Assembly (NCBI GenBank): GCA_964187785.1
Contig: OZ076418.1
Location: forward strand, 56,482,001 to 56,546,000
Reading direction: 5' to 3'
DNA length: 64,000 bases
From: Amphiscolops sp. MND2022
Lineage: Eukaryota
Both the position numbers and the translations under genes were made by a program. Shown piece after piece: positions 14,770 through 52,269 of the stretch (positions are counted from its first letter, which is position 1; every line of letters begins with the position of its first letter). Below the pieces are notes generated by a model. The model saw only the letters and a list, made by a program, of their open reading frames with translations. It did not search any database and was not told where the DNA came from.

Positions 14770-17700
14770 AAAGCAGGCATCATCATTTGCCAACTTGGAT
14801 CACCCGGTGCCGCGATTGGAAGCCAAAATTGCTCAACAAATATGGAAAATTGTGGTGTGAAAACTGCGATGAAGATATAACGGTTGAAACAAGACCTTTC
14901 AATGTGAGACTCATATTAGAATTTAAGAAAAAATCCAAATCCATCATCTCCAAATTTAAGATCAAACCTAGTTATTAGTACAGAAACATAAACTGAATAA
15001 AAATGAATCGAAAGAGTGTCAAACGATGGAGGTAATATCGCAAAAAATGTTACCCAGATTCAAACGTCAAATAATTAAATATCTAGCTAAGTTGGTTTGA
15101 AGGACAAGAAGAAGTTTTAATATAACGATGTATTATAACAATTTTGATGATTTTCACATACTTCAAACAATAGCTGACAAGCAGTTAGAAGAGTCTTTAC
15201 AAATTCAAGAAGTAACGGAAAACAAAATGGAAATATGTAAATTCATGTATATTCAACCTTCTTTATGCGTTGAGTTACTAGAAACTTCAAAAAATAGTGA
15301 CCCTTTTTGAATTTTATGGATTATATTTGCCTACCAAATGCTAGTTGACGTGAATAAACAACGCCAATGCATTAACTTCACGAGTCTCACAATTTCTTTT
15401 TAAAAGTTAGGAGATTCCCAAGTTTGAAAAGTTGAACAACTTGAATATAAATATTTTTGAGTTGATTAAAACATTGCCAACACCAATTTAAACTGATCAA
15501 AACGTACTCAGAAGACCAAATAGATCTCTTTTGTGTGCAAATCATAATTGTCTGATAACAACATTACTTTCCCTGATGAATGAAGGTATGCACATCAAAC
15601 AGGTATGGTAAGGATGAGATGTTCAACAGCAGTTAGTTCACAAGACATCCTGAAAGATCACAAAGAAAGTTGTATAAAACTACAACCAACCAAACTCAGG
15701 TTTAGTGATAACCCCAACCGAATGTTTGAAGATTATCACAGGAAAGTAGATGTTCCCATAAAAATAAATGATGACTTGGAAAGTAATAACCAACATCAGT
15801 TTGTACCAATGTGCTTTAAAGAATTTCAAAGTGCTGTTGGTTATTAATTGATATCACCATTTAGAAATCAGTTTTACTCATATTTTGGAACAAACTGTGT
15901 AGAATGGTTTGAAACGGAAATTTTTTAGAAATAGAAGCAAATACATATTTCAAAAAAAAAGATGCAAATCCTCAAGGAAAAATCCAAGGAGCTGAAGTGT
16001 GGCGGCTTTGTGATGCCCTTTGTCTCCTCTTTGGGTAACCAATCAAAAGATGAATTTTGAGATCATGATCATCCGAGAGAATACAGAGGAGCAGCTCATA
16101 AAGTATGTAATCTCGGCGGCAAACAAAAGTGTAGCAACTGCTGGCCATCATCCTGCGCAGTTTAATGCCGCCCTGATCCGTTGCTTGTACTGTGGACCGT
16201 TACTGAACAAATCCTGCTTTTTGTGTTTTAAAGGAATGTTTCGTATGGCTGGTGGGTCCGATGTGACCCGTACGAAACCCCTGCGATCCCTTTTTGCACT
16301 TGTTTGGATCCAATTTGATCCGTCACACACTTCCCTCAATGTACCTTCACGCGTTCCGGCTCTCCAACTATGAGAGTAGCTACTTAGTCGCTCTAACTCT
16401 AGCCAAAAGTGGTGAAAATTGAGAAGTTGATCACTTAGTCTCTTGGTCCTAAGACCCAACTAGACTATAGCAATTCACTGGAGAAAAGCTCTATCTAATA
16501 ATGGTAAAAATCTGGCTTACAATTTTACATTAAATATACATCAAAACATGTTGTATAAATAAATGACATTTGAAACATAATATGAAGGTATTGGCTAAGT
16601 AAACAAACAATGTGGTGGTTTCGGCATGTTGGTCAGTAGGGCTAGAAAGTATGTTTACACAATGTAAAAACCTTTAATTTCAACAGAATTACAACTCCTT
16701 CAAGGTCATATGAGAAAATAACAAAAACTTGTAGAGCAAAATATGGGTTTTCAATGGGTCCGACTTAGGTCACTTTGGGTGCTATTCGCATGAAATTGGG
16801 GTTTTTACGGGGTAGGGCGTTCCGAGTGAAAAATTGAGTAGCACCTCTAGTATATACATGCTAAGTTTTAGGGTCATTGGTCAAGTGCTTCTCAACAATG
16901 GCCGGGGTGGTGCACTTTCCCTCGGGCTTATTGATAAATTTTCTAAGCGTTTTGAATTATAAGTTCCATCAGTTACGTTCAGAACTCAGTTTCTTGTCTT
17001 GCAATTTACTGGCGCCAACGAAAAGCGATAAAGATTTGTTCCTATTTTTTCCTTAATTTTAGTTATTTATTTGTTGTGATTGTCATCTAGCACTCGATGA
17101 ATTACTTCAACAATTTATGTTTATCTATTAGGATCAAAGATATTATCCAAGAGTTTGCAAAAGTATGCATATAAAGAGGTTGGTTGTTTAGGATTCTTAG
17201 ATTTACAAAGTTTTTCTCTTCTAGACTACAAAATCTTACAGCATCTCTTGACACTGTGGACCCCAAGGGTTTAACTGAGGATAAAGTTCATAAAAAGTTG
17301 CTCTATCTATATGCGAAACTCAATCTATAAAAATGGATCGACGACATAAACTAACAGGAAAAGACTCTTGGACAACATTGATACAATCCTCCTCATCTTA
17401 AGATGATATACAGGTGAATTATAAATACAATATAACAACAGAAAAACAACTGTTTTACCTAAACATTGAAAATCTACAGATACCTTCCTTGTGTTTTTGA
17501 GAACTTTACCAGTACCTGATGAGTAATTCTAATGTTTTCAAAGACTGTGAGATTCTGTTAAACAGTCATTTACAAATTACAAACCAACCACCAAACTAAC
17601 GTGTGATTTAGCATACCAGGAAAAGTACATGATACAATATAGACTTCTCAAGTTTCTTGTTAACATAGGGATTAAAGTAACATAAATTCAATGTGACATT

Positions 17701-18620
17701 TTATATAATAACCATGGTTAGCAAAGTCATGGAACATAACACCCGAAAAATCAACGCAAAAACAAACTTTGAAGGAGACTATGCAAATTAAAGAGCAATG
17801 CTTTCTCTGGGAAAACAAGGAAGAGCGTTATAGGCAGAATCAATCTAGATTTCAAATCTCACCCTTAAATAGTCCAAATGAAACAAAAACAAACCAAAGC
17901 GATCGTGGACAACTATTCTACCTTAATTGTTTATAAAAGTGATAAATAAAACACAGTTTTCTGAAAAACCGTTTTATTGAGGTTCTCTGTTTTCAAATTA
18001 GGTAAACTATTAATGTATGAGTCTCATTATTATACTTAAGGAACAAAAAAATGCAAGTACAAAATATTTATATTGACAGTTTGTTTTTCTCAGTTTTGAT
18101 AGAAATGTAAAACGTTTATTAAATTTCTTACAACAAAAAAGGAAAAAATGTGATTTCGTTGAACCAAATAAAAGCTATCAAATATATGATCCTAATATTG
18201 AAAAAGGTATAGGAGAGAGGAAAATCAAAACATCAATTATATTAGTTTTTTCAAAAATTGCCACTTACGTTGGAAATCAATTTCGTCTCTTTTTCTAATG
18301 TTCAAAAAGCAAACAAAAAAAGAATACAAAATGCTCCGAATATTGACGAAAAAGTCATTGTTTTTTTCAGAAACAAGTTAAAAACCCTACTTTTGTCTTT
18401 CATTGTTACATCAATTAACAGTACATTGGCAAGACAAACTATCTTTGAAGCCGTTTGACGTCAAACGTTTGTTCATAATACCTATAAAATGTTTACATTA
18501 GAACAAACACACAAAACTTTTTTGGTGTAACTGTATTTTATGCATAAAGTTCATTGGATTGTATTTCGAAGAAATAACTAAAAGTAATTCAGACAAAGAT
18601 ATAAATTTTAGCGTGTGAAA
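14770..18620 (+). mobile_element. Polinton/Maverick protein-primed DNA polymerase B remnant, copy 1
   Basis: Endonuclease-VII-like motif DHDHPREYRGAAHKVCNL (~16060-16115); polymerase motif ...FKLGKLLMYESHYY (~17990-18035, cf. ELSKLLMYEFYY); N-terminal LWCENC. Interrupted at ~16130-16950; many stops. Confidence 0.75.
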
Positions 18621-18789
18621 ATTGATGAAAAAAATGAACCTTCAAGAGTTCCGAAAACGGATAAGCCACCCAGCACATCTTTCATGAAGTAAACAAATGT
18701 TATAATAAACATAATAATAGGCATTTATTGTATATAAAACGAACTTCATGATTTGTATATATACTAATATTTATTATATAGTATGAAAT

Positions 18790-19990
18790 TATATATAGTC
18801 TGGGTTCAAAGAAGTTCCCTAATTCATAATATGCTTGGTCATAATGATCTCTATCATAATTACGATCTATTCCATCAACAGGAAAATTTTCTGAAACTTA
18901 GAAATTTTAAACCAATATTATTGTGAAAAAGGCAATCATCATTTGACTCTTGGGTAAGATAGAAATCATCGGAAATCAGGTGAACGTAAATTAGTCTGTG
19001 TGAAAATTTTTGGTGTGAAGACTGCGGTAAATACATAACCGATAACAACAAGACATTCAATGCGAAACTCATGAATTAAAACGTCAAATACTATCATCTC
19101 CAAAAAAACATCAAACCTAGATACAGGAACAATGTTTAATGATAAGAACCGAATGAGCATCAAGACACAGAACACCAAACGAAGAGAATACTTTTGCAGA
19201 GTATAAACGTAAGTATGTAAATATGAATAGAGCATCTACCTGAAACGTTTCAGAGTTTGTCTATCAACAACCCTGTGGTGGTTCTTTGTATGGCATAGTG
19301 ACTTTGGTATGTCACAAAGATGTATTACAATGATTTTAATGATTTTCAAATTTATGAAAGAATAGATGATGAGCAGTTGGAAGATTTACAATCTGAAATT
19401 GCAATGAAAAAGCAGAAAAAAAGAAGAAGTATGTAAGTTCGAGGGTATTCAACCCTCTTCAAGCGTTGAGTTACTAGAAAGTTTAAAAAATAGTGACCCT
19501 TTCTGAATTCACTGGTGTATATTAGACTACAGACAGCTAGTTGATGTGAAAAAACAACGCCAATGCATTAAATTCAGCCGACTTAAAGTTTCCTTTTAAA
19601 ATTAGGGAGATTCCCAAGTGTGACCAGGTGAAAAACTCGAATATAAATGTTTTTGAGTGGAATAAAACATTGCCAACACCAATGTAAATTGATGAAAAGT
19701 ACTCAAAAGACAAAATAGATCTCTTTTGTATGCAAATCATATTTGTCTGATAACAAAAGTACTTTCCCTAATGAATAACGATTCGCATATCAAACGTGTA
19801 TGGTATGGAACAATGTGTAACAGCATTTATTTCACAAGACATCTTAAAAGATCACAAAAAATGATGTATAAAACAACAACCAACAAAAATCAATCAGGCT
19901 CAGTGTTAAATCCCACCTAATGTTTGAAGATTATCACAGGTAACAGATGTTCTAATATATGATGACTTGGAATGTAATAAAATAATCAAT
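18790..19990 (+). mobile_element. Polinton pPolB 5' remnant, copy 2, containing a partial LTR (~19180-19314)
   Basis: 18930-19130 aligns by eye with 14770-14970. 19315-19950 is a close paralogue of 24961-25560 and 15125-15800. Confidence 0.7.
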
Positions 19991-20028
19991 CTCAAGATAG
20001 TCCCAAAGTTTTCTTTAAACAACGTTTC

Positions 20029-23000
20029 ATAACGAATCGGACCTCAGAGTAGTGTATAAACGTAAGTGTGTAAACATGAATAGAGCATCTTTTTGAAACG
20101 TTTTAGAGTTTATTTTCCGCCCAAAGATATTGGGGGGGGGGAAAATCATGATCTGTGATGCTCACATTTTTTTCAGTTTTTTTGACAAGACTCCTTTTAA
20201 ATGGAAATCCATAATCCAAGTCTCTCTTTAAAGCTCTGGAAAATTTTGATTTCTTTCAAAAACAAACTCTCTGTTGATGTAGAAATAGTAGTGAATTAGA
20301 TCGCTTTGGTTCCGCCAAATCTCTACGATTTCCGTCCACTTGACTATTTCAGTTACAATCAATCGGTAGGTCTTGGGTTCGAATCTTGCCTCCGACTGAT
20401 TTCTTGTGACAAGACTGAAAATATCCCGCTGTTTAGCTGGCGTCTTGTTTATCAACAACTCTGTGGCTCTTTTGTATGACATAGTGACCTTGGTGTGTCA
20501 CTTTCCCTCTCCATGTGGGTTGGTGTTTTGGTGCGAGTGCCAAATAATACGGTTGATTTCAGATTTGTTTTCATTGGTCAGCATTTCACGGTCTTCTCTT
20601 TCTTCACTGTCCGTCTGCACTCTGGTTCGACTTTCCTGTATCAAATCATGGTTAAGCCTAGTTTCCTTTTTAATAATGTCTGTTTTGTAGGAGACACAGC
20701 CTAAATTTCCGGTTTCTTTGTCAAATGGAAGTCGCTTGGGTGTTCTTATCGGTATATTCAGTTCGGTTGTTGCAAGACCATAATTTATAACTGTTCCCGC
20801 GATGAGGTCTTTCCTTCGGGTGGATTGGAGGCTTCGATGTTCTTGTGGCCTTCGCTAGTGGTATAGCAGTGGAACTCATCATCTGAGATGATGCTCAAAT
20901 CCAAGTCCACTGTTTTCTCCACAATTTTTCCCGCGACGTGAACTGTCTCCTTTGGTTGCGTGCTTTGTCTTTACGTTTCAGCCAGTCTTCGCGCGTTTCG
21001 TGATTTTCTGCGTTTGGTGGGTCCTTGGTTTTTCTGTAGTCGCAGGATGCGGGGGACTCCATGTCTTTTGAACAGGAGGGCTGTTCGTTGGCTGATTGTC
21101 GAGTGCCAATCTGTTTTGATAATGTTAAGGTGTCTGAAACGGTAGAGGATTGGATATCAGTTTTCGGTGGTAATTTTTTAAGTATGAACCGTTCAACTAC
21201 AATCAATTTTCTTTTCTGTTTGTCGTGAAGGTGTGATCATGCCCAAAATATCTATTTGTGGTTAATTGTCAAACTTGCTTTCCAGAGAGCTCTTTTTTTA
21301 AAAAAAGTAAAAGGATAATTGTTTACACATACCGTACTTGACGGATTCTTTGTTGTGTGAAGGTCAACCACCGTTTGTATTTCCGATCATTTGTTTTCTT
21401 TTTCGACATCACCAGATGGTCTGTGATATCGTCTGTAGAGTTCCGCGTTATGTACACGCGTTAAGTAGAGTTCCGCGTTATGTTTCTGCGGAATTGGCTG
21501 AAATAACAGTTTTTAGGTTAGTCAGTTTCGTTTTGGGTTTCCGTCCGAAGTGGAGTTCAACGGTGACTTTTGTCGTTCCGAATTGACAGTAAACCTAAGT
21601 ACGTATACTGCCTTATCTAGGCTGTCTCTTAGGATTCCATCCTCCAAACTTGCCTTTATCAGGTTCTTCAGTGATTGGATTGTTCTTTTGACCCATGCGG
21701 TGCCGATATGTTTGATGGGCCTTACTTACGAATTATATTGCTTTTTGTTACAGTAATTGTTTAATTCTTTTGATATGAATGCGCTGCCTCTATCTGTTTT
21801 GGTACCATCCCATAAATGTTAGTATATTCTTGTGAAAATTTTACGTTTTCGTGGTTAGTATTTTTACAATTTTTGCTACTGTCCGTCGACTGTTGCTGTC
21901 GATAGCGATTGTTTAAACGGAGAGCGTTCAACATGTTTGCTATGTAGAATCCTCGTGTAGACCACAGGCTTTAAAGTTTTGTCACCCGGAGTTTGTGGCG
22001 GATTTCTTTTTAATTTTTCAGTGCTAGGAATTTGGAATTCTAGGTTCTTACCGGTTATTGAGGCAAGCCGAGCAGGTTTTGGCTTTCCTTTCAATATCGA
22101 CTCGCACATTTAGCCACTAGACGATCATTACATCACCGCACATTTTGTTGACACCAGGGTGTCCGAAATGTAATGCGTTGAGAGCGGCGTAGCGTATTAA
22201 TGCGGTTGTTGACCACTGTAATACAACAGCAGTGGGTAAGTCTTTCGGCGACATGTTTGTCATCTTCAGAGATTTTTTTCAAGTTGTTGTTATCGTGGCA
22301 ACATTGTAGTTCAATTGATTTCGGATCTGCGACGCGGTTTATTTGATTAATGTCTCCAAGTTTAGCATAAAATCCAGTTCCACCGATATGAGGTTTTTTT
22401 GTTCCTAACTGCTAAATTTTCTGTAACTCGGTTGATTCGGACGTAACGTCCGCTATTTCTTCTATTGGTCAGTCTCGAAAGTTTTGTCCCGGAATAGACT
22501 GGTATGCGCCAGGTTCCTTGGTTGTTATTGGCTTTTTGGGAGAGGAAGAGACCGTGGATTCGGATTTTTGTTGGTTTCCAACGGTGCTTCCGTCGGAGTA
22601 TTGTCTCTCTGTGGGGTTGGGTCCCTGAAGTCTTTGAAATACCCACCACCGAGATGTGTAACTCGATGTTCTTCTTTCCGTTCGGGCGCAAATCGATGCG
22701 TTTTATCTGCTTGCGTTCGCCTTCTTCCGGTCTCTTTGGGATTAGGATTTGTCTATCATGTTTCTTGTGGTATTGGTAGCACATATTTCAAGAATTGGCA
22801 AGTTTATTGCGTCTTTCCAATAGCTCCTGCCTTTCCAGTTGTCTCTTCTTCTGATGAGTTGCATAAACCTATCGTCGGCGCCTCAGTGGTATTTTAATCT
22901 GTCGTCTTCATCTCTTGGAAATTTTGATTATGGGTGTTGTTGTTGCTGTCCATGTTTTCTGACGGGATATTTTTTGTTTCAATGCAATTTGACTGGTTAG

Positions 23001-24960
23001 TGGCCGAACGAGAGCTTGTGGGATAGTTGTTTGATATGAGGCAGCGCGTGCAAGTTTGCGTGGGTTGCGCATAATGCATGGCTGCATGAACAACTTCTGA
23101 GATGGTATGGCCCGGCCCTACAGTTTTTATATGGAATATTGTTTTTTGCTAACTTTATAGCCTTCATTTTTTAGTTTCATCAGTACAGATTCCAGTTTCT
23201 GGGTGTGTTTGTCTTTCGAGCCGTGTGTGACGACAATTATGTTGTCCAACCACACCGGGTGTTGCGTGACTGAGTGTTCGTTCATTTGCTCTTGGAATAA
23301 CGTGGATAAATCGGCTGGACCGTGAAATCCCTTCAAAAATTTGTAGTATCTGTTGTTTTTTCCCTGTAATTACAATGTTGCAGTGCTTGTTCTGGGTGCT
23401 AGTGTCATCCGTAGGCATAATCTCATTCTATTACAGATATCCAGATCGTGTCGGTGCTGTTCCTTGATAGATCTGCGAATATATGATTGAGTAGTTCATC
23501 CATAGTTGGCATGTGTGGTCTCTTTTTTTGCAGCTTTCGTTTAATTAACGGGTATCTAAAGTGATTTCGACGAGTTTGTACTTTGTATGTGATTATTACA
23601 AGTGATACAACGAAGTTTTCTTATATGGTTGCTTGTCTGTCGAAATGTGCGGAATTGGTTAGTCGGTTTATTCCGTTCTTTACGTCGTCTTGTAAGTGAT
23701 ATTGTATGGGTCGTGCTTTTTGTTGTATCGGATAGCATCCTGTTCGATTTCTTCATCTTCAGAGTTTGTGTCTTCCATGTACTTTATTGTTCTTTGGTTG
23801 TTGTTGTTTTGTTTGCTTCAACATACCCGGGTGAATATACCTAGTATTTGGCAGTTGTTTCATTTCGTGGATTTTGCCGGAGAATATTGCTGTGGTTTCC
23901 AGCTTTGTTGTCCGCAGAATCCACATTTTGTTCCTTTTTTGCGTAGATTTACCCTAATTGTTGTTTTCGTATTTTGTATTGTGGTATTCTTGGTTTCGTG
24001 TAATTTGTCTGTTCTGGATTGGATCTTGTTCAATTCCTTTGTCTTTTGCTAGTGCGGGGGTATCGTAGATTGTTCGTGTCGTCGGTCGTAGCTGGTTTAA
24101 GTTATTAGCTCTGGAGTTGTTCTGATGTTTAGTGTTTTCTCACGTAGTAACTTCTCCCGTCTTTTTTTGTCGGTGATAAAGGTGACAAATTTTGATACCA
24201 GTAGGTCTTCTTGTTTAATGTTTTTGAATTCGCAATTCATCTCTAGTGTTATTAGTTTTTTCCAATGATCTTCTGGTATTTCGTTGCCTTCTTGCTTTGC
24301 CCAGAAAAATACTCAGCGGCTGTTGTATGTGTTTCTCGTGGCCATGTAGGGTTCCCGGAGTAATTGTAGTAGTTTGTCTGTTTTGATTCTGTCTGGGTCC
24401 GTGTTAAAGTCACCTTTTGTGATTTTTTCGATGGATGAATGTCCGGCACCCCAGATAACTTTTTATCTGATTCGGGTTCTTTTTTGTCCCATGTTACACC
24501 GGAGGGTACTATTTAAAACAATAGTATCTGTTTGATAACGATGTTGTGGATTCTTTTAATGTGTTTCCACAAACTTTCGGTGTGAATATTTTCTTTCCGT
24601 CTAATCCGGTATCCTCCTGGTACGCTAATTGCATGTTGTTTGTTGTTATGTCATCCTCGGTGGTGTTGTCGGGATAGGTTTTTGTTAGAGGAAAAAATCA
24701 AAAGTTAAGTTAGAAGGTTGGATCTTGTTAATGCACCATGTTAAGATCTCTAGTTCTAGGTTTAAAAAGATGGTTTGTTGCATAATCTAATTCGCACTGT
24801 TCTATTTCAAATCAATCTTTGCAATGTAACAGGTCTCAGAGTAGTGTATAAACGTAAGTATGTAAACATAAATAGAGTATCTGACTGAAACGTTTCAGAG
24901 ATTGTCTATCAACAACTCTGTGGTGGTTCTTTTGTATGGCTTAGTGACTTTGGTATGTCA
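20029..24960 (-). mobile_element. Decayed, internally deleted Gypsy element C with both LTRs
   Basis: 5' LTR 24825-24960 (minus strand TGACATACC...CTGTTACA). 3' LTR ~20029-20500, preceded on the minus strand by polypurine tract GGAGAGGGAAAG (20501-20512). Degenerate RT LFQE.....WLDNIIV (23127-23336); integrase TDRGSAFISKE (~21770-21800). Confidence 0.75.
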
Positions 24961-27150
24961 CAAAGATGTAATATAATGATATTAATGATATTCAAATATT
25001 TGAAACAATTGATGATGAGCAGTTGGAAGATTTCGAAAAATAGTAGAAAAAAGTAGAAATACGTAAATTCAAGGATATTCAACCCTCTTCAAGCGTTGAG
25101 TTACTAGAAATTTTGAAAAAGAGTGAACCTTTTCGAATTTAATGGTGTATATTAGCCTACCGACTGCTAGTTGATGTGAAAAAACAACGCCAATGCATTA
25201 AATTCAGTAGACCTAAAGGTTCCTTTTAACATTAGGGATATTCCTAAGTGTGAAAAGGTGAAAAACTCGAATATAAGAGTTTTCGAGTTGAATAAAACAT
25301 TGACAACGTCAATCTAAAATGCTGAAAATTACTCAAAAGGTCAAATAGATCTCTTTCGTATGCAAATCATAGTTGTCTGATAACAAAGTTACTTTCACTG
25401 ATGAATGACCATTCGCACATCAAACATGTATGGTATGGAAAAGATGTGTAACAGCATTTATTTCACGAGACATCCTAAAAGATCACATAAACTGATGTGT
25501 AAAACATCAAAAAAATCAATCAGGTTTAGTGTAAAACCCCAGCTAATCTCAAGATAGTCCCATAGTTTCATTTATTCAACTTCCAATTGATGTTGGTTAT
25601 TAACTAATATCTCCATTTGGAAATCAGTTTTGCACAAATTTTGCAACAGACTGAGTAAAATGTTTTGGAAAAGGGTCTTCTGTATAGAAAAAGAAGCAAA
25701 TACACATTTCAAGAGAAAGATACAACTCCTTAAAGAAAACATTCCCAAGAAGTTGAAGCGTGTTGGCTTTGTTAAACCTTTTGTTTCCTCTTCGGGTGAC
25801 CAACCAATAGATGAAGTCCGAGATCATGATCATTCAATAAAAAATACAGAGCCGCGGCTCACAAAGTATGTAGTCTCAACTGCAAACAAAAGCGATCAAA
25901 CTTTGCTCCTAACTTTTTTTCCATAATTTTAAAATTTTGTTGCGATTACCATCTAGTCCTCGAGGAATTTTTTAGACAAGCGTTTATTTTTCAATTAGGA
26001 TCAAAAATAAAATCTAAGAGTTTGCAAAATTATGCATCGCATCTGTTGAGGTACTTTGTTTGGGATTTTTAGATTCACAAAGGTTTCTTTCTTCTAGTCT
26101 CCAAAAACTTATTGCATCTCTTGATACTGCGGACTCCAAGGGTTCAACTGATGATAAATTTTCCAAAAAGATAGACCTTCCATTTTAGAAACTAAATCTA
26201 GAAGATATGTACCGACCAGTAAATTTAACCGAAAAAGACTATTGGACGTCATTCAAACAATCCTCCTCATCTCAAGATGATATACAACGTACCCAAAAGG
26301 TGATCCATATGTACAGTATTACAGCAGGAAAACAAATGTGTTATACATGAATTTTGATGTTCTACAATTAGCTGATGTGTTAAGAAACTTTGTCACTACG
26401 AGTTCAAAACAAAACGGGATTTTTCCTTTGTATAATTAAACATTACCAGGTTATTCCTCGAAAGGTGGTTTGAAACATACCGAAATCAGGGAAGATTTTT
26501 GAAAGGTGAACAATTCTTAACATTATTGGAAAAACAAATCCTTGGAGGAATTTCCAGTGTAAAGGGCGATGTAATAGGTTTGTTGAATCGGATGCCCTCG
26601 AAATATCTTTCATATTGATGTCAATAATCTATATTGATGGACTATCAGTCAACCGATTTGTACTGGGGAGTCATTAAGTTTTTCAATGCCTCTGTGAACT
26701 CTGTTAAACAACCAGTTTACAAATTACAAACCAACCACCAAACAAGTACGAGATACATTATAGACTTCTCAAGTTTTATGTTAACATGAAGGTTGAAGAA
26801 ACATAAGTTCAATGTGACAATTTCAAACAATCATCTTGGTTAGCATCTTGGTTTGGAAGCGACTTATGCAACTTAAAGAGCAATGTTTTTTTTCGGGCAG
26901 TCAATGAAGAACGTTAAGGCAGAATCAATCTAGATTTCATATTTCACTCACAAATAGACGAAATAAAAGAAAGACCATCCAAAGTAATGTTCAAAGAAAT
27001 TGTGAACCACTATTGAACGTCAAACATTAATAAATTTGACAAATGAAACACAGTTTTTGAAAATCTTTTTTTCAAGGTCCTGTTTTTGAATTACGTAAAC
27101 TATTAATGTATGAGTTCCATTATCATACTTTAGAACAAATGATAGAAAAT
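24961..27150 (+). mobile_element. Polinton pPolB remnant, copy 3
   Basis: Collinear paralogue of copy 1, including gatcatgatcattca...acagagccgcggctcacaaagtatgta (EndoVII motif, ~25820) and gtaaactattaatgtatgag (KLLMYE, ~27095). Ends abruptly at the (TA)n run. Confidence 0.75.
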
Positions 27151-27207
27151 TCCATCATATATATATATATATAAATATAAATATATAAATCAATATAAAT
27201 ATTATCA

Positions 27208-27294
27208 TATAAATCAAGGACAAGTTGCTGGTGAGAAAAAATTGAAAAACTGTCCAAGTTGCCAAATCTTCAGAGCAACATGGACAGCAACTGG
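27208..27294 (+). repeat. Left terminal motif of the YR element; direct copy at 36010-36097
   Basis: tataaatcaaggacaagttgc...aaaaactgtccaagttgccaaatc...agcaacatggac versus tataaatcagtgacaagttgc...aaaaactgaccaagtttccatatc...agcaacatggac; roughly 75% identical by eye. Confidence 0.75.
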
Positions 27295-27915
27295 GACAAC
27301 TCCCAAAAAAAGTTTCCAGTGGGAATTTTTTTCCCAAAAAAGTATCTGGTAATCCCTGGGGCCATATATTTCGTTTTTTCATTGAAATAAAGTTCTCCGC
27401 CACCTACAAAAAACTGAAAAAATTGATTTTTTCCAACTTGCGGGGAGCTGGAGGCCGAGTTGCGGAAAAAAATTTCGCAAGATGGTCCAATTTTCAACGA
27501 AAAAAAAACATAATAAAAAACGTTGTTGCAGCAGCGGAAAGTAGGATTAAATCATAACTGGGCCTTTTGATAACCAAACAACCCGTTTCCACAAATTTTT
27601 CAGGAGGAAAAATCAATGACTACAAGAATACCCAACAATAATATTTTTTCCGCAACATGGAAAGCAAAATGGCCCTTTTGTGGTAAAAAAATGCACACGA
27701 ACAGTTTATAATGCAAAATGCAAAAATAAATACTGTTCCAAAAGTAACACTGAAAATACTAAATGCTGAAACAAAACCAGAATAATGCGAAAGTTCTAAT
27801 ATAGGCAGTTCTAGACTAGATATCTAATTGGTGTGGCTTCTGTAATTTCTAAAGACGCTGCGATCCTAAATTGTGTCGCTTCTAAATTGTGTCGGTTCTA
27901 AATTATGTGGGACCT

Positions 27916-30686
27916 CTAAATTGCGTGGCTTCTGCACAAGACGCTGCGACTCTGGGCAGCAGCCACCTGCTGCTTCAGTTCCTCGTAAGACCAGACAGAA
28001 CTGTTATGCATCTTCAGCTTGTTCTAAACACAAAACAAAGAATTAACAAAAGGTGCTCGAATCATGAAGAGCACTTTTTGAAAAAGCCCAGTTTTATGAT
28101 TTTTTCACATGGCAGACGCGTACAACACTGCAGTAAATTTGATGCATTTTTCACATTATTTTCATCAAAAGTGAATATTCAATTTTCCGGAAAGTTTGAT
28201 TGTTCGGGCAACATTCAGATATTTGACCCCCCCCATTGACTCCGAATAATCATCGTACATGTATAATTTTAATGTAATATTTTACCGCGCTGTGAGTCGT
28301 TTCTCTTTTTGCCTCCTTGCTGATTAAGATCTCCGCGACCGTCAGACAATTAGGGCTTTCGATATTATTCATCACCCACAGCAAGAAGATTGCTGGTAGC
28401 GAGAGATACCTCTCATCGGCACGCAAGGCTTGTTTCTTCTCCTGCATGTAGACATCTGCAATCAAATCTAAAACAAACATAAAGATTGCTATCCGAGGTT
28501 TCGATTACAGTCAGTGTCAAAAACACGTTTATTTGCTCAGATAGTTTTCCAGCTGGGTGGCGTCAAAAGTCCAACATGGAACAAAACTTTGTTTACCTTA
28601 CTCAGTGTTTTGTCCCACAGAAAGTTAGCTCCTCTTGCTTTGGAGTGCTCTGTAGTCCTCACAAGGTGAGGAACACCGCCTGGTAGGATCAATCCCTCAC
28701 CCTGGTTCAGCACAACCTTCCGGCAACTGAGCGTGGGATCTGATCCGAACACAACTTCGTTCCCGAAAACACTCAATCATGAATTTTAACCGTTTGTGAA
28801 AACACCTTACATTCTACACAAAATGTTAAGTAAGGTACATTTTAGTCGGGGTTACCGAAAAAATTATCTCAACGGAAAAACTGCAATAAATCAATAATAA
28901 GATTTGATTTTGTTTTTGAGGAAAGGAATAAAAATAATTCTCAATTTTTATACAAATATTTTTTACTGCCAAAATAATTCTGCAATGACTTTTCAGCACC
29001 TTTTCGTTTGCATAATTTTTGTGTGGATTGACTGAATTATAGCCGATAACCGTCTCTTACGTCCACTGCATTTGAAAGCCACCCAAGTACTCCTTTATAA
29101 CAGGCAACTCAGGCCGACAGAAACTGCAATTATTGCAATAATTCAATTTTGAGACAAATCTTTTGCAATTATTTGTTTTTAGTATGCAATTTGTGTACTT
29201 TTAAATTACGACTATATTTCAGTTAAATTGACAAAGATTGTCAACTTAAATTTTGCCTCGTTTGAAATCCGAATACTTCCTCATGTTCTCCGGAGTTGGT
29301 TCAATGACAAGCAACTCCTTTTGTCCTCGTACCAGCAAGTAAAACACGCTTGTACCAGAGAAATCCACGTGCCAAGGTGTTATTGCCCCTTTCTCGGTCA
29401 GCAATAAGTACTTGTTGAGCGAATTATGGTTGAGGCAACCAGGGAGCTTGTCCAGAAATTGATGGTAAAGGGACACCCCCTTTATCACTGCAGGCAGCTC
29501 AACGTCACAGAGAAGATCATCTTCTAAAAGAAACAAGAAACTTCTTCATCTTTAGATCTCAAAAAAAATGTTGATTGAACAAAAAAAATTAAATGTTTTG
29601 GGCAAAATGAACCAAAATGAGACAAACTTCAAACACCTATTTCTGTTCTTTCAATGCGAAAAGTGTCTAAAGTAGAGAACAATGTATTATGGGAAAACAA
29701 ACCTGGTCGAAAATAGTCGATGACGTTGAATGGATTTGGTCCATCCAAGGTGTCAATAAAATGTTGCAACGTCTGCGTCCTCATCTTCTCATTGCCTTCA
29801 TTGGCATAGTGTCTTACAGAAAGGGGATGGGAAATCATGTTGTTGGAGTTTCCCAGAGACAACAGACATTGCTTGAAAGGCTGACGAAGATATGAAGAAG
29901 GGATTGTGGAGCGTAGTCCTCTCAACTTATGTGGATCCTGCACTTTGACGACAGGAATATCGCCCGAGAGTTGGGGCAGCATATTTTCAACATCACTGGC
30001 CGACAGAACTTTTATAAACTCGATTGGTCTGGTAGAAGCTGTCCGATTTTGCATCATTTTAGTGCAACTCTCTGATAGGAAATTGAAGTAAAAGTCACTT
30101 TTGACAGTGTTTGCTGAGCTGGAGATTTCGACAAGTGTCAGCGGATCTCCAGTGACTGTGAGAAGTTGGGTGGCAGCAGTCGAAGCGGATGGAACTGGGT
30201 CCTCTAGGGCGGCAGAAAGGGCAAGGGATCTCTCATCTTCCGTCTCTCTGACTGCAGGGAGACTGTCTAAAGTGGGCTTCTCGTTCGCGATCAGAGTCTT
30301 GTTCACCTGATCCAAGGTCGGCATCCATCCAAGCCGAATCGAGTCGCGTTCAAGCAGCCTCGAAAAAGAATTCAGATGCCTCTCTGTTACTAGATTTGTC
30401 ACATTCTTCTCTGTGGGGAGCAAGACTTGTCCACGCGCTCTGACTTGTTGGTGATCTGTGCTCGACCATTGAAACTGATCGAGTGACAGAGTTTGCCCAG
30501 AGCGTGCTCCGACAGCCTCCATCTGGTTTCAAACACCTCCTCGGAAGTCCCATACCCGCAGAACATGCACCTGGTCCCGACTGGTTTCTCCATGCAGGAA
30601 CGTTTCTTCTGTTCATTATGCCTTTTGAGAGATCCACGTGTTGCAAACAGTTCGTTGCATACTAAAACTGGTTTTGAAATTAACAT
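27916..30686 (-). pseudogene. Spliced JmjC histone demethylase-like gene (KDM2/KDM7/PHF8 type) with N-terminal C2HC-like zinc fingers; at least one frameshift
   Basis: KYLLLTEKGAITPWHVDFSGTSVFYLLVRGQK and LNQGEGLILPGGVPHLVRT...GANFL match the KDM2/7 JmjC core with an intact H-x-D...H iron triad. Exons ~30662-29637, 29523-~29257, ~28770-28602, 28467-28286, 28023-27916. Introns 29524-29636, 28468-28601 and 28024-28285 are GT-AG and phase-consistent; the ~28.8-29.25 kb junction is uncertain. Confidence 0.85.
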
Positions 30687-31173
30687 ATGGTCATATTATC
30701 CACACGTAGCAAAAAGATGCGAAAACAAAACAACTTGGTCCTTCCATATTTTGTCGGATATAATAATACCACTATAGTTCACAGACCTCATACATGCAAT
30801 ACGAAAAAGTAACAAATCAGTTTTTCGTGCTGCGATTTCTCCAAAACAACTTCTTCATTGCAACTTGGCACCGATTTTTATAATTTGTAAACAAATTAGT
30901 TGCATTGGCCCACTCTGCAGCCAAAATACGAAATTTGTTCGTTTTAGTGTCAGAGTCGATGATTATGTGCATCGGTTGGGTGTCGATGGCGGCTGCCCGT
31001 AACGATTGCTATTCACGAGTCCGAAAATAATTTTCAATTCCCACGCGTCCGAATAATAGTTGAGCGGTCTCATTTCTAATTTACTGTAACAACCCGACAG
31101 TCATTACTACCCCATCAATTTTCAAGTTTTATTTAGATATTTTAAAATAAAACAACGTTTCATTTTGTTTTAA

Positions 31174-31235
31174 CAGTTTGTGTGAACTCCTTGTAATATA
31201 CACAATTTGTTAACCCACTGAGTAACTGCTATTTC
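31174..31235 (+). repeat. 62-bp inverted repeat, partner at 37995-38056
   Basis: 55/62 identical to the reverse complement of 37995-38056; a partial direct copy lies at ~31425-31490. Confidence 0.85.
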
Positions 31236-34200
31236 CAGCGTTACATTTTAGTTTTTTTCCATCCATAAGTTTTAGATATCATTCATGTCTTTAAACTTTA
31301 GATCTTATTCCCTTTAGATCGTATTACTGTCCACAAATTTCAGATCTTATTCCATTGAGATGTCGTTCATGTCATCCAATTTAAGGTCATATTCTCTTTT
31401 ATTTTTTTCGGAATTAATCGTATGTTTCATTATTTCATTAACAGTTTGTGTGAACGAGTTGTATTTTCCACAATGTGCTAAATTCTGAATTCATTCTCAA
31501 AAGATTCAGTCTTTACTAGGTACATCACAATTTCCACCATTTGTTCATCGCAAACTTCTCCTGAACATTTCCATTTTTATATAGAGTGAAACTAATTTTT
31601 AGGTCATATCAGCCCCCCATCTGTATAAGCCCGGGAGAGGGGGGCTTATACGTCGGATTATACAATAGTTTCGCGTTAATGTCATTAGCTCCTATGTTTT
31701 CATTTCTTTTTCTGCAACAACAAAAACAACTATTTGTTTTTCAGATACATCTCCGCTGAACATATCCACTATTTGTTTTACATGTAGGCCTAAATTTTGA
31801 AGTATAAAAGCAAGAAGAATATGAGGATTGAATCAACTTACCACTGCATTGAGGCCTGTTGTCTCGAAAAGGTGTGTCCATGTCGAATAATGTCGAGGTG
31901 TTCCGATTAACGAATAAATTCGAAAGTCACTCAATTCTTATGCTAAAAGAAATTCGAACTAAATTTCGAATATGGAATTAAAACCCAAAACAAAACTCCA
32001 GAGTCCTAAAGCAAAGAAAATACTTACTTTGGCAATAGGATTGTAACAGTAACAAAGGTGCAAAATCGAAAGCTCGTAGTCTACGTGTGAGAATAACACT
32101 AGGTAATACAGTCCGTACAGTAAACTGCGAATGTATAGTGACTCCATGTTTGTCAATATTAAACTAAGCGCAGCACAACATCTGCGGCAGCAATAGTCAG
32201 TATTTCACCAAGCGCAGCATTGTATTGACTAAGCGCAGCAATGTAATAATTGACGTACACTGAGTAATACAGCGTGTACATGTTCATGTATGTTGTGTAA
32301 TACTATGACCTAATATTGACAAGCGTTACAACATCTTTCTGAGAAGTAAAAACTATTGTTCAAAATTGAAAGTTTCTGAGAGGTCTGATGTAGATTTGAT
32401 ATAGCTCATGAATTTCTTTAGAGTATAGTTACCAGAAAAGGTTATGAAGGATGCTAGAATGGATGAATGATATGATGATAGCCTTTCATTTGCATACCAA
32501 GTCATGTTTTCCCCCCAAACTGCGCAGGGGGAGGGGGTTTGGCAGCAGAGATGGGGGTGGGGGTGGGGTTTGAATTATGTCTCTTTGAAGGAGACACAAG
32601 GTTCGAATACCGTTATGTCGACATCGTCTGCATTTTGGTCCAAGAAAATAATTGATGTCGACATCGAAATAATCATATCCCTATCCATTACATTGACTGT
32701 AAAAATTTATTATATACGAAATAACTTTTTCTTCCCCCCACATTTTTCGAGATGATGTTTTAGCAGAAAAGTATAATAACAAAGACATGAATAGAAACAA
32801 GAATCCTTTGATTTTAAATGTATTTACAGAGTGACAGTTTATAATTGAGATACTAACTTTGTCCACAATTTTTCCCTATTCTTCAAAACTTGTGGGGTGT
32901 TTATTCACGAACAAAATGTACTTACGGTTTCGCTAAGGGGGGGTTGACAGGGTTGTATAATAAAAAATTTATGTTAAAAAAATTTAAAATGAACGAAAGA
33001 AAATATATTTTTTGGGCTAAATCTAGAAATATTTTCAATTGAGCAAATTTTTTTATAGCGACACCACAATATAGCGACACCAGGAATAATTTACCATTAC
33101 ATTATGTCACTTCAAAAGCCGAACATCTCTTCAGTCACTCAAAATATGTACTACTATGATGAACAAGACATTTTGGAATACCAAACCTGTTGCGTCTCTG
33201 TGCAATTTTATTAACCCTGGGTGAAATGGCCTTCTTGGTATTAAGTCCACTGGGGACATATAGTGGGGAAAATATATTTCAACCCGGGGAGGTTGCGGGG
33301 GTTGTGGGCGGTTTGGAGTCTGTTGATAAGACACATGGTCCTTTTTCTAAGGATCATTCCTTTTTTAATGTTGATGCCGAAAAGTGACAATGAGTGCGTT
33401 GATGTTAATGTTAATGTGAGGTAGGTGAGTTCATCAATTTACAAATGCGGCTAACTTGAGTTCAAATCTTTGTAGAGTTTCGAAACTAACACTCAGGTGT
33501 TAAAATGAGTAAAGACTTTTTTTGCGAAGTTCTACAGTATCGAAAATTTTGCCAGTATTTTCGTTTGCTTCTCAAACTCAACTTACTCTCAACTTGAATT
33601 GAATTTCGAAAGCTCTCAACTTGAATTCTACAATGCCTTGAACTCGATCAGCTTCTGTGGCTGTTGCCCGCGTAACTCGTTCAACTCGGGACGTGAAAAT
33701 CCGAAAACTCCCAAATCCTGGCTCAAAACAGCCGACCAAAAAGACAAGCAACCTGGCGGTGGTTGGAAAACTTTCGTTAACAATTTCGGACGACTCTGTG
33801 TCTCCTTATCCAGTTTCGGCTGTGGAAGTCCCTACTGTGGAAATTCCTGCTGCAGAAGTCCCTACTGTGGAAATTCCTGCTGTGGAAGTCCCTGCTGTAG
33901 AGCTGTCTGATGTTGCTGGATCGGAAAAGAGATGTAAGTGATTCTTTACTTAAAACATTTTATTTGGTTTATCTTGGAAACATGCATGTAAAAAAAAGAA
34001 GATATAAATGTACATTTTCATGGAACTGTCAAAAAAGGACATATCTAAGGTTCTTAGTCCGCACTATAACACGCAACTACCAAACAAATACTTTTGGAGT
34101 AGTTTGAATACCAAAATACCAAAATGAAATAGCATTTAACTCATTGTGTAAAATAGGGGGTGTTTACACAAACTGATAATGAAGTGATAAACATCTATAA

Positions 34201-34460
34201 CAGTAACTTTCAAATAAAAAAAAATTCCGGTCGTTTTAGGCACCGGAACCGAGGAAGCAAGCGGTGCTGGAGCTGTGAAGAGTCCAATTGCAGTCCAAGA
34301 GTCTAATGAGCGGCCTCTGCCGGCTGCTGTATCAGAGCAAGTGATGCGTCCCGATACACTGCTGAGCCTAATAGATGCCCATCTGACGCACATAGTATTC
34401 GATTCTGAAACCCGAAAAACGCATAAACATTGTGAAGTCCCTTAATACATTTGCACGATA

Positions 34461-34949
34461 TTGGCGAAGCCACTTGGGATGGCCTTGTACCGGGAAATGA
34501 CGCAGTCTTACGGCACATCGTGTGACAGTGTCAGATACAAAGATTTCCTGAGCTACACGGGAATTGAATATGAGTTTGGAGTTTTTGCCAGAAAGAGGCT
34601 GCAAAAGGGCTCCAAGATTCAGGGCATTGATGGTTACTTTGCAGAGGCTGTGGATAGTGCGCCCACAGTTTCTCTCTTTGGATCTGAGGGAAAATCCAGA
34701 AAGGAGCGAATCATGCTGGGACCAGCAAGTTTTGTTAACCACAGCTGTCAGCCTAATGATGTGTATGTTTGCGGAGGTCCGACAAAAAACCGAAGCAATT
34801 TGCGGATTGAGGCCATTAGAAACATTGAAGAAAATGAAGAAATTTTTGTTATATATGGAACAAATTTTTTTGGCAACAACAACGAAGAATGCGCCTCTTA
34901 CCCGGGCAGCCCATTGAAGTCCCTGTATGTGTTTCTGCTGTTGATCTGA
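34461..34949 (+). CDS. SET-domain exon, SUV4-20 (KMT5B/C)-like
   Basis: MLGPASFVNHSCQPN and YGTNFFGNNNEEC match SUV4-20 signatures (LGPAAFINHDCRPN; YGDGFFGENNEFC). The in-frame upstream ...KTHK resembles the SUV4-20 pre-SET THK. The post-SET CxCxxC is not intact. Confidence 0.85.
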   Translation: MAKPLGMALYREMTQSYGTSCDSVRYKDFLSYTGIEYEFGVFARKRLQKGSKIQGIDGYFAEAVDSAPTVSLFGSEGKSRKERIMLGPASFVNHSCQPNDVYVCGGPTKNRSNLRIEAIRNIEENEEIFVIYGTNFFGNNNEECASYPGSPLKSLYVFLLLI

Positions 34950-35162
34950 ACTCCAGCCATGTGAACCTAACAAGCGATGTGTCAGCAACAGCTTCTTACA
35001 ACTGAATATACGCTAACCAAGAGTAAGTATACGTATTGCAATAACGTTTTTCTCATTAATTTAGAAAACTATTGGCTGTGAACATTTTACCCAAAAACAA
35101 TTCCACATAACAACTTCTGTATAATTTGGATTGATTACACAAAACGTTATTTTTTGGATTAG

Positions 35163-35585
35163 GCAGCACAGTGAAGTCCCTGAATACGTTCCTGCTGTTG
35201 GTCTGAACTCCAACCATGTCAACCTAACAAGCGAAGTACCAGCAGCTGATGTCTCTGAATGCACTTCTGCTGTTGGTGTGATCCCCGGAGAACAGAAGGT
35301 TAAAAAACTCCAACAGACCAAATATGGCGAAATTACCCAGTGCCTGATCTGCGAAAAAACAGCGAAGCGGATATATAAGCACTATGTCCGTTCTCATCCA
35401 GAGCTGACTGAGAAGGACCTTCGAAATTTGAAGGACTTCATGAGAACCCGAGGTCGGCATGAAAATAAAAAAATATTTTATTGCGAGGAGCACGATCGTC
35501 GATTTCTCAACAAGATGGATCACAACAGACATTACAATTGCGACCTCAACTCTATCTTCGTGGTTGCTAACCACACTAGTAAAAG
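35163..35585 (+). CDS. C2H2 zinc-finger exon
   Basis: CLICEKTAKRIYKHYVRSH and CEEHDRRFLNKMDHNRHYNC. Confidence 0.65.
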
Positions 35586-36157
35586 GTATTTTTTGTTGTT
35601 ATCAAATTAGCGTTGTAATTATCGTTGTATTAATTAGTTTTTACGTGTGATGGTTTCCAAACACACAAAATGTTTATTAGGTAGTGAGTGGTAAACGCTA
35701 GAATATCAAGTTATCAGTTGCCGTTTTTAGAACTCTGCCACTCGAGTTGCGCGCGAAATTGCGCAATATTCATCTGCCGAGGGAGAGTCACATGTCTCTG
35801 GTGACTGAGTTCGTCAACCACGAGTTTCGAGAAAGAGGCTCAGGGTTGTCCGATGAAAGCGTCTTCGACGTGCGAGGACGCGACTCGCTGAAGAGCTTCC
35901 TGGCAATTATTTATGGGACACGCTCGCGTTAACAGAACCAAAAGCGCTGATTCCAGCTATTGAAAGGTATTCATTTATTTTCTATTTAATATTTAATGAA
36001 ATAAAATAATATAAATCAGTGACAAGTTGCAACTAGGAAAAACTGGAAAAACTGACCAAGTTTCCATATCCCCAAAGCAACATGGACTGCAGAATGGATC
36101 AACCACATAAAGACCTGTTGGTCAGAAACTGTTCTGAGTTTTGCATTTTTTTTCTAG

Positions 36158-36922
36158 AGTTGAGCTGAGAAGACAATGGGAGCCGAGCACAACAAACTGG
36201 TACATGTCCCAGTTTAAGGTTTTTCTTGATTACTGCCACACGTACGAGAAAAGGCAGATGAAAAAGGAATCCTGCCTTTCCACCATGCAGAAGGCGCTGA
36301 GAGATGCGAGAAGAGAATTTGCGCCCAATCTTGCACGTTCTTCCAAAGAAAGCAAGAAAGTTCTCCCGCGTGCCCAGTCTGCATCAAGTCACAAAGAGGC
36401 AGCTGCAAGTGATTGAGGTGCTGGAGCGGGACTTGGAAGAGAAAAACTTGACGACGACTACCCTGAAAGCTCTCAACTTTTTCCTGCTTCAATGTCGCCT
36501 CAACGTCACGCCTGGTCCCATATTGAACGTGACGTGGGAGTGCTTCGACTCCCACTTGAAAGCTGGACACGTCTATGAAACCAGTGACCACAAGACGGGG
36601 AAGTTTTATGACGTTGCTGTCAGGATTGAGGCCGACCAAATCACGCTCTTAGACGAAATGAGGGAAAGGATGAAGAGCGAGTACCCCACAATGCCTTCCC
36701 TCACCAAGTCCCAGCAGGAGACAAAAATGTCCTACTTAATCCGAGACACTTTCACGGAACTGTTCCAGGACGATCCAAACTTCGTGCGATATAATGCGGC
36801 GAACTCAACACGAAAATTCTGGGAGATGCACATGGCTGGGCTGGAACTGTCGCAAAATCACAAAGATGCCCATTTAGCCCAAACCGCACACTCAGAGATC
36901 ACGGCCAGGAAACACTATCAAA
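36158..36922 (+). CDS. Tyrosine recombinase (core-binding plus catalytic domain) exon
   Basis: Core-binding WEPSTTNWYMSQFKVFLDY, then after a frameshift LNVTPGPILNVT (box I), DHKTGKFY (catalytic K), NSTRK (x-x-x-R) and HLAQTAHSEITARKHYQ (H and catalytic Y at 36916-36918). Confidence 0.8.
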
Positions 36923-38849
36923 GTAAGTATATTGAATATTTTTTATCCACTTGGATATGTGGTTGGATGTTTTCCTGCTTCGAACATTTTTTAAACAAAA
37001 CCTGTGTGTTTAACTTTTTGTGTTTTTACTTCTTGTCTGCACAAAATTTTAATGCTTTTTAGGAGTCACTGAAGCAGATCGAAATGCGGTGCTGATTATC
37101 TACAGCAACACACTGCGGACAGTGGCAGAGGAGCCTGAGCAATTGCCGGAGGAAGAAGAGAGCACTGAGGAAGAGGTCGAGAAAGAAAACCCGAGACCTA
37201 AAAACTACCAGCGGACGTCATTAAATTCTACCTTTGACCTCGGAAGATCGGCATTGAAGCGTGCAAGAAATTTGGAAGACGACGACGACAGCAGCAACGA
37301 CGACAATTCATACGACAGCCTCGACAGCATTGATTTTCCGCAAACCCCGAGAACCCCGAAAACACCTAAAACCTCGAACACCCCGAAAACCCCAAAAACT
37401 CCAAAAACTTCGAACACCCCTGACATTCTAGAGAAAAAACGAAAATTATATTTTAAAAGCATGAAGCATTTCAGAAATACTAAAGATCCTTGGACAGAAG
37501 AAGAAAGAAGTGTTTTCCATATGGCGTTACCGACAATCCAAAAGTCAGAAGTTGAAGCTAATTTGAAGGAATTTGAACCAGCAAAGCAAAGTGTCTGCTC
37601 ACAAGATATACCGTAAGGTGAAGGCTGCCTGGATGAATGTTAACAAGAAGTTCCCATGCCAGTAAAAATTATTCAACTTTATTCAACAAAACCGCAGAAA
37701 CTTTTTTAAGTGTTATAAACGCTTCTCATTTTCATTTTTGAAAAATTTATTCATTTTTTCCAAATCTTTTAAATGGCTTTCAGTCGTATGAAACGCATGT
37801 TTTCAAAAGCTGACTCTTTTATACTTTGAGTATTATACCTTAGATAGTTAGATTGACAAGATTTTAAAAACTTGAATATTGATGGGGCGGTAATGGCAGA
37901 AGGTAAAAATTGACAAAAGTCGTGGAATGAATTTAGAAAATCTACAATATTACTGGTAAAAAAACTCTAAGTCGAAGAAATAGAAGAAAGTGGCGAAATA
38001 ATAGTTACTCAGTGGATTAACAAATTGTGTAAAAAAGAAGGAGTTCACACAAACTGCCAATAAAAGCAGCATAGTGTTATTTTCAACCCTTTCACCAAAA
38101 TTTAACACTAAGAGGGATAACCTGCTTTCTGAAACAGTTTTGGAGCTTTTTGCAAACATTTTGCAAAAAATTTTCATTTTCCCTCAAAATTGCTAGAAAT
38201 CTGTCCGACTTGCGAAAAGTTGTCCATGTTGCATGTTTGGTTATTATTAGTATTTATTAGTAAAATTATGCAACTTGGAATATCGGTTATTAAGGGTCAC
38301 GCAAAATGGTCCGATTTCTAACAAATTTTACGCATTTTGTCCCTGATTTTTTTATATATGTATATATATATGTATACGTTTGTTTGCAACATATAGCCCT
38401 GTAGCAGGGGTGATCGGGTCTTTATTGTTGTTAGGTTTTAAAGTGAATGTCACCCTACACCCTACTCCGTATTTTTTTTCTTGATCAGCAAATCCAAACA
38501 ACCTTTCATCGTAATTCTCACAAAAGTGACCATTTTTCTTTTGTTTCTTAGTTCGTGTCTTCTTGTACTTTTTGATACGTTAAATCCATACAATAACGCA
38601 CTTGTTTGTTGGTTGGAAGTTGAACAGTTTTCCTTTCCAGCTGACGACATGTCTAACAAATTTTTTGAATTGACCAATACCTTTGGTCAACCAATGTTAA
38701 TTTTAATTGCTTTCATATAATCCACGTTGTTAAAGTTTTAATTTATTTGTTTTTCTGAACGTTTGACAAACTTCTAAACAGTTTTCTTTGTGATTCCAGT
38801 TACTTTACCAAACTCAATTTTGTTTTCTTTGCATTTTTCGGGAACTATA

Positions 38850-52157: not shown

Positions 52158-52269
52158 AGGAGAATAGGTTGTGAGTGTGTCAGAGTCCCCTGGGCGTACA
52201 ATTCTTTGGGACGGGGTATTTCCACACGTTTGTATAAGGTTTGTAGTTCAACCCACAGTTTGGCTAACG

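Follow-up and report, generated by a model that had tools for sequence, protein, structure and literature searches.

Sequence comparison points to a novel form of tyrosine-recombinase transposon in the genome of Amphiscolops sp. MND2022, in which a demethylase-like cargo gene, kept by selection, lies beside a methyltransferase–recombinase fusion. The cargo gene joins zinc fingers to a JmjC domain, and we consider it somewhat likely (probability of roughly 0.55) that intact copies remove mono- and dimethyl groups from histone lysines, presumably on the chromatin of the element itself. The copy found in the window, by which we mean the whole 64,000-nt stretch of DNA analysed here, is capable of none of these proposed functions. 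If the enzyme is active, it would show directly, and in a form open to experiment, that an animal transposon can alter its own silencing marks; it would also be a demethylase joined in nature to a DNA-binding module and needing no PHD reader. The literature searched contained no case of a histone demethylase maintained by selection as cargo of a transposon, and open copies in a second family (family B) make an enzyme assay feasible.

A tyrosine-recombinase element with two genes

The features of the window element, a dead member of family A, are collected in Table 1; it is 80–89% identical to 12 other regions of the genome.

Table 1. Coordinates of the window element, its termini, internal repeats and gene parts
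Feature	Position	Strand	Basis
Complete element of about 11.2 kb (DNA transposon with tyrosine recombinase), dead family A copy	27157..38372		Similarity extent, inverted TA-rich ends
TA-rich run at left end, with 19-bp terminal inverted repeat at 27210-27228	27157..27228	+	Terminus common to family B
JmjC exon 6 and stop	27915..28023	-	Copy comparison
JmjC exon 5: helices aligning with start of Jumonji helical domain	28286..28467	-	Alignment
JmjC exon 4: third iron ligand His, pocket Asn; acceptor mutated to GG	28602..28762	-	Alignment
JmjC exon 3: T, H-x-D, F, Y, K core; donor mutated to TT	29250..29523	-	PF02373, E 0.022
JmjC exon 2: both C2HC-type fingers, then a conserved helical domain, a linker and the JmjC start; 4-nt frameshifting deletion	29703..30661	-	Copy comparison
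Internal terminal-repeat copy, JmjC gene intron 1	30860..30878	-	In 11/13 family-A regions scanned
JmjC exon 1 (predicted): start codon, first Cys of finger 1	31842..31881	-	Conservation, with GT donor, across family A; family B has a homologous exon
SUV4-20/KMT5B-type SET domain	34347..34904	+	PF00856, E 3e-10; sister copy KMT5B E 6e-15
SET-finger-recombinase polyprotein: zinc finger and N-terminal helical part	35170..35967	+	PF23075, E 2e-4
Internal terminal-repeat copy, intron before recombinase exon	36012..36030	+	In 11/13 family-A regions scanned
Tyrosine recombinase domain; 1-nt and 5-nt deletions	36138..36921	+	Fold matches, copy comparison
Right terminal inverted repeat (38332-38350) and TA-rich run	38332..38372	-	Terminus comparison

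In the copy on contig C11, SET domain, zinc finger and recombinase form a single frame of 1153 codons. The SET domain of a sister copy matches KMT5B/SUV4-20 best (10 of 13 matches; E 6e-15, with the next family at 4e-5), and in family A it keeps the Ser251 position, called catalytic in bioRxiv 2023.03.17.533220. The recombinase escaped sequence searches of Pfam and PDB and emerged only from fold searches: its model (pLDDT 78.8) had Cre and Tn1549 integrase as top Foldseek matches (E 0.007), and comparison with Xer gave Z 13.6 and rmsd 9.8 over 254 aligned positions. Arg, Lys, Arg, His and Tyr of the recombinase are conserved in sister copies, with Asn at the first His, and a protein search returned just two relatives, both without names. 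In the window, the post-SET part is disrupted by a 19-nt deletion near 34904, and Thr (codon at 36508) replaces the first of the recombinase's catalytic Arg residues; together with the recombinase deletions and the JmjC lesions described below, these changes leave all three enzyme domains dead.

Open frames inside three element copies consisted of JmjC, SET, finger and recombinase parts only, with no reverse transcriptase, polymerase or capsid among them, while capsid and polymerase matches fell outside the termini. An endogenous virus or a DIRS retrotransposon was rejected, as neither capsid nor reverse transcriptase lies between the termini. Where resolved, the termini lie against runs of TA or TAA, or against a small number of TA units, and such runs occurred once in 20 random 10-kb stretches. 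Quite probably, these elements would move through excision as a circle by the recombinase, followed by reinsertion into TA/TAA runs. One family-B insertion site lies in a polymerase gene of Polinton-like type. Among 14 further copies of that site, five were unexpanded, six had lengthened TAA runs, one had a long run followed by other DNA, and two carried short inserts. These variants could be excision footprints or ordinary slippage.

A repeat of 44–71 bp recurs within the element in both orientations (28786, 31170, 31438, 34136 and 37995-38065) and is a possible binding site.

Searching the 1.07-Gb genome with JmjC exon 2 gave 39 matches, grouped into 31 loci. Both SET and recombinase lay within 10 kb at 23 of the 31, and one or the other at 25; for the recombinase alone, the chance expectation is about 1.4%. 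This count drew on 26 of 150 scored recombinase matches and 24 of 150 scored SET matches, picked for their position near JmjC loci, and matches missed could only lower the 23 of 31. The sequence-only reading, which had placed the JmjC gene on a mobile element, is borne out by this linkage and by the terminal repeats that bound the gene. That reading makes no mention of the SET-finger-recombinase gene.

In family A, the JmjC and SET-recombinase genes are arranged head to head. None of its ten copies is lesion-free; two carry just one 1-nt indel each, in a homopolymer run, which may be assembly error, and copies of the younger subfamily are 97–99% identical. Family B has the same terminus and its two genes point in the same direction. 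JmjC and SET-recombinase genes stay together across families in both orientations. An open JmjC gene of 568 codons with AG/GT splice sites is present in three of six family-B copies, one of them on C5 at about 7.445-7.449 Mb, and two copies on different contigs share 99.6% identity over 10.5 kb. We count this pair and the open copies in favour of recent activity of the element.

Of 1068 candidates, 150 were scored, and most of these appear to be of a more distant JmjC type with Gln in H-x-D. Among six such loci fetched, two had a recombinase-like frame of another type, which matched no Pfam family and which we take to be a recombinase from its motifs, and three had SET-like pieces in the DNA fetched. 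Further SET-finger-recombinase families are many, with single frames of up to 1333 codons; some had no JmjC in the DNA fetched, and their SET domains are SUV4-20-like in some and KMT5A-like in others. Tandem and nested partial element copies with repeated right ends occur at C1:22.155-22.195 Mb and C2:35.24-35.26 Mb, an arrangement that recombination of circles or ends with copies already in place would be expected to produce.

Structure, chemistry and selection of the finger–JmjC gene

Comparison of the window copy with nine others yielded a JmjC gene model of six exons and 589 codons. Exon 1 lies outside the 27916–30686 range in which the gene had been noticed and is predicted from conservation; family B, whose protein is 43% identical to that of family A, has a homologous counterpart with equal splice phase. 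With the first Cys supplied by this exon, finger 1 reads C-x2-C-x12-H-x7-C, and finger 2, in exon 2, reads C-x2-C-x17-H-x5-C. The ATG at 30686 was rejected as start codon, its position being intronic and the conserved first exon lying upstream.

The WHVD motif (starting at 29374), the PHL motif (starting at 28671) and the T and K positions for 2-oxoglutarate, all reported from the letters alone, were located on the minus strand. The claim that the catalytic triad is intact did not hold for the window copy. Relative to other copies, a 4-nt deletion near 30476 shifts the frame of exon 2 after finger 2 and thereby cuts the fingers from the JmjC domain, and intron 3 has lost both splice dinucleotides (donor TT after 29250, acceptor GG before 28762), so that the last iron ligand is not spliced on. 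An intact window gene is rejected on these grounds: the window copy is a pseudogene, whose triad is present in the DNA and not expressible from it.

The H-x-D...H iron triad is found in window exons 3 and 4 and in families A–E, and the Thr, Lys and upstream Asn positions are ones that we take to have 2-oxoglutarate-binding roles. In the alignment all three are kept, along with Tyr222 (KDM2A numbering, PMC4197961). For KDM2A, the same source gives I144, Y199, L201, D214, F215 and N298 as the methyl-lysine pocket and H212 and H284 as ligands; families A and B retain all six pocket residues and both ligands, and the kept pocket favours a mono- or dimethyl-lysine demethylase. Clade-wide changes lie beside the pocket, namely Ser to Asp after I144, Gly to Ser/Thr after F215 and Trp to Phe before Y222. 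On balance, the JmjC domain of intact copies is predicted with reasonable confidence to act as a demethylase. For the Jumonji helical domain, a genome search with PF17811 matched only in a host gene, and element exon 5 aligns by eye with its first helices.

Neither PHD nor CXXC is present in the 589-codon model, in which Pfam found only weak C2H2 matches on the N-terminus; the C-terminal CXXC, PHD and F-box of KDM2-type proteins are likewise absent, the gene stopping about 100 codons past the JmjC domain. Three element families, with protein identity of only about 43%, have kept both Cys/His fingers, which are therefore not there by chance. The gene model thus agrees with the sequence-only reading in having two C2HC-type fingers in place of PHD/CXXC. 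Whether, in addition, the fingers and a helical domain act as the replacement targeting module and bind element DNA is about an even bet on the present comparisons.

This helical domain, of about 70 residues, follows finger 2 (window about 30460-30270), is conserved across families A–C and matches no Pfam family. A profile of the region weakly matched an archaeal TFE winged helix (E 0.007), which we do not count as evidence, and fold prediction for fingers and helical region was poor (mean pLDDT 46.6).

Selection was estimated from Nei–Gojobori counts over 547 codons of family A copies. The two subfamilies differ by 123 synonymous and 82 non-synonymous changes (dN/dS 0.15), whereas changes private to single copies gave 0.72 and 0.75 (Fisher p 9e-13 for the contrast). 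Likewise, dN/dS was 0.19 (95% bootstrap 0.15–0.26) between the window and a copy on C3 and 0.86 (0.54–1.35) between the window and a close relative on C2. In the finger region dN/dS was 0.16, as strong a constraint as in the JmjC domain (0.18–0.20), and between the window and sister copies the recombinase gave 0.13 and the SET domain 0.28. Low values between subfamilies beside about 0.73 on private branches indicate a cargo selected during element replication and decaying after insertion; the dN/dS comparison proposed earlier for these copies therefore came out as not neutral. Between families A and B, dS is saturated and core identity is 56%.

Relatives among host enzymes and known transposons

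All 14 PDB matches were KDM7A, KDM2A, PHF8, PHF2 or worm KDM7, in line with the KDM2/7 ancestry suggested before, and an intron-free relative (P0030) matched PHF8 at E 7e-24. One of five candidates proved to be a conventional multi-exon host gene with a Jumonji helical domain, at C4:53.02-53.03 Mb. Since a pattern search found no PHD motif in the 40 kb around it, this gene is called KDM7-like from the tree alone. Its existence led us to reject the element gene as sole host KDM2/7 orthologue, which had been named as the finding that would overturn capture. No second host gene, including a KDM2 orthologue, was seen among 150 scored of 1001 candidates, so a lost host KDM2 could be the source of the cargo.

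Trees were built from 64 of 130 sequences, and from 41 under a mixture model, after 22 short matches had been dropped. The element JmjCs form one clade (100/100) separate from KDM2, KDM7 and Jhd1, in an unrooted tree with long branches, and lie about 1.7 substitutions per site from these host-type proteins, matching the strong divergence from host paralogues noted earlier. In the 41-sequence tree, eight environmental JmjC proteins group with the element clade, so that this clade may extend beyond the Amphiscolops genome; their metagenome contigs, at 1.1–2.1 kb, are too short to include neighbours. None of 15 pattern matches on viral contigs was a JmjC relative.

With KDM7 (PHF8/KDM7B, KDM7A) and KDM2 (KDM2A, Jhd1) enzymes, the element JmjC shares the triad, the T/K/Y/N residues, the methyl-lysine pocket and, judging from the exon 5 alignment, probably the start of the helical domain. 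It differs from both in being multi-copy and element-borne. Where KDM7 orthologues have an N-terminal PHD, it has two C2HC-type fingers and a novel helical domain; KDM2 orthologues carry CXXC, PHD and F-box C-terminal to JmjC, and the element protein carries none of these.

Among transposons, the closest likeness is to Cryptons, above all CryptonV; these too have a tyrosine recombinase and lack reverse transcriptase. Insertion in microsatellites is reported for CryptonV families (PMC8869645), a targeting shared by the element, both ends of which adjoin TA/TAA runs. In contrast, PMC3212892 describes the original Cryptons as having 4–6-bp terminal direct repeats and no terminal inverted repeats, unlike the 19-bp terminal inverted repeats of families A and B. 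Further differences are the length of 11 kb, the SET domain fused to the recombinase, the separate JmjC gene and the Asn at the usual His of H-x-x-R. In view of its inverted termini, and with CryptonV compared by description, we call the element Crypton-like and do not class it as a member.

Epigenetic cargo is known from HarbingerS and MuDR elements with SET in oomycetes, from TET/JBP carriers in fungi and from Vandal anti-silencing in plants (PMC12730594). These too are DNA transposons carrying an enzyme or factor that alters epigenetic marks. Their transposases are of the DDE type and their cargo is either a writer or a binding factor, or else a dioxygenase acting on DNA, whereas the present element combines a tyrosine recombinase with JmjC; the parts of PMC12730594 that treat their cargo name neither a histone demethylase nor a writer–eraser pair. 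No report of a transposon-borne JmjC was found in the literature, a search that did not cover Repbase Reports, where such elements could be described. The main text of bioRxiv 2021.11.30.470311 does not contain the term 'JmjC', and its supplementary table of 823 fusions may bear on novelty.

Proposed function, rival readings and neighbouring mobile DNA

In the mechanism we favour, an intact JmjC gene would yield an iron- and 2-oxoglutarate-dependent mono/dimethyl-lysine demethylase that its fingers target to element DNA, extra copies of the terminal repeat lying in two introns. Removal there of a repressive mark would keep the element both expressed and excisable. Reported PHF8 substrates are H3K9me1/2, H3K27me2 and H4K20me1 (PMC10349869). 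That the mark belongs to this repressive PHF8/KDM7 set, with H3K9me1/2 or H3K27me2 more likely than H4K20me1, is an assignment to which we give slightly less than even odds.

One difficulty for removal of a repressive mark is the partner SET domain, which is of the type that writes H4K20me2/3. These marks are usually tied to heterochromatin, and with such a partner plain anti-silencing fits poorly. PHF8, moreover, is described as helping to silence retrotransposons rather than to free them (PMC10349869), and both the distance of the element clade from all host-type KDM2/7 and the lack of a lesion-free copy among the ten of family A count against the favoured mechanism. The SET domain could instead belong with JmjC to a matched H4K20 module, JmjC erasing H4K20me1 and the recombinase-fused SET making H4K20me2/3 at the element ends, with effects on repair, replication or packaging of the excised circle and not on transcription. 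The KMT5B/C match of the family A SET, at the E values given above, and its kept Ser251 position point that way, as do the weak best match of a related element's SET to KMT5A (E 2e-5, tied with EZH2), the inclusion of H4K20me1 among the substrates given for PHF8 (PMC10349869), and the cohesion of the two genes in either orientation. We nevertheless hold such a module to be unlikely: 467 SET and 761 recombinase candidates contrast with 31 close JmjC loci, and the many SET-recombinase elements without JmjC nearby imply that the SET domain does not need an eraser.

Less likely again is that JmjC acts as demethylase or hydroxylase on something other than histones, such as the recombinase of the element itself or a host silencing factor. 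The long branch separating the clade from all histone-acting relatives, the missing PHD and CXXC and the clade-wide changes next to the pocket would suit this reading, but the enzyme retains the six residues of the methyl-lysine pocket and is paired with a methyltransferase of histone type. Lastly, the gene might bring no benefit to the element with which it is copied, being either a neutral passenger or a host gene family that has expanded; this is largely refuted by the dN/dS of 0.15 on the shared lineage and seems to us highly improbable. The passenger reading could draw on the ten broken copies of ten in family A, on SET-recombinase families that lack JmjC and, with no host KDM2 orthologue among the 150 candidates scored, on possible descent from a lost KDM2; the host, however, has its own conventional gene, and the cargo lies within element termini in families diverged to saturated dS and 56% core identity.

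A wider and doubtful reading is that the elements represent an undescribed group of animal tyrosine-recombinase transposons with a complete histone-methylation writer–eraser kit, made up of the SUV4-20-type methyltransferase–recombinase fusion and the zinc-finger-targeted KDM2/7-type demethylase. Such elements would set their own chromatin state, possibly around H4K20, and may also be carried by the Polinton-like viruses that often serve as their insertion sites.

Remnants of Polinton-like polymerase or double-jelly-roll capsid genes adjoin five of 18 family-A/B loci, including the window (25761-27091 and 38453-38620), and a sixth locus adjoins an unclassified frame that we take to resemble a minor capsid gene. 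Polinton-like or capsid matches were present in none of 20 random 10-kb stretches, and two family-B copies end at one and the same site of a polymerase gene. The adjacency may reflect target preference or hitchhiking. Elsewhere in the window, a Polinton-like segment is present as three diverged repeats at 15093-26286, with polymerase remnants at 17641-18247, and a Gypsy-type LTR retrotransposon occupies 43795-58355 on the minus strand, with LTRs 94–97% identical and broken gag/pol frames.
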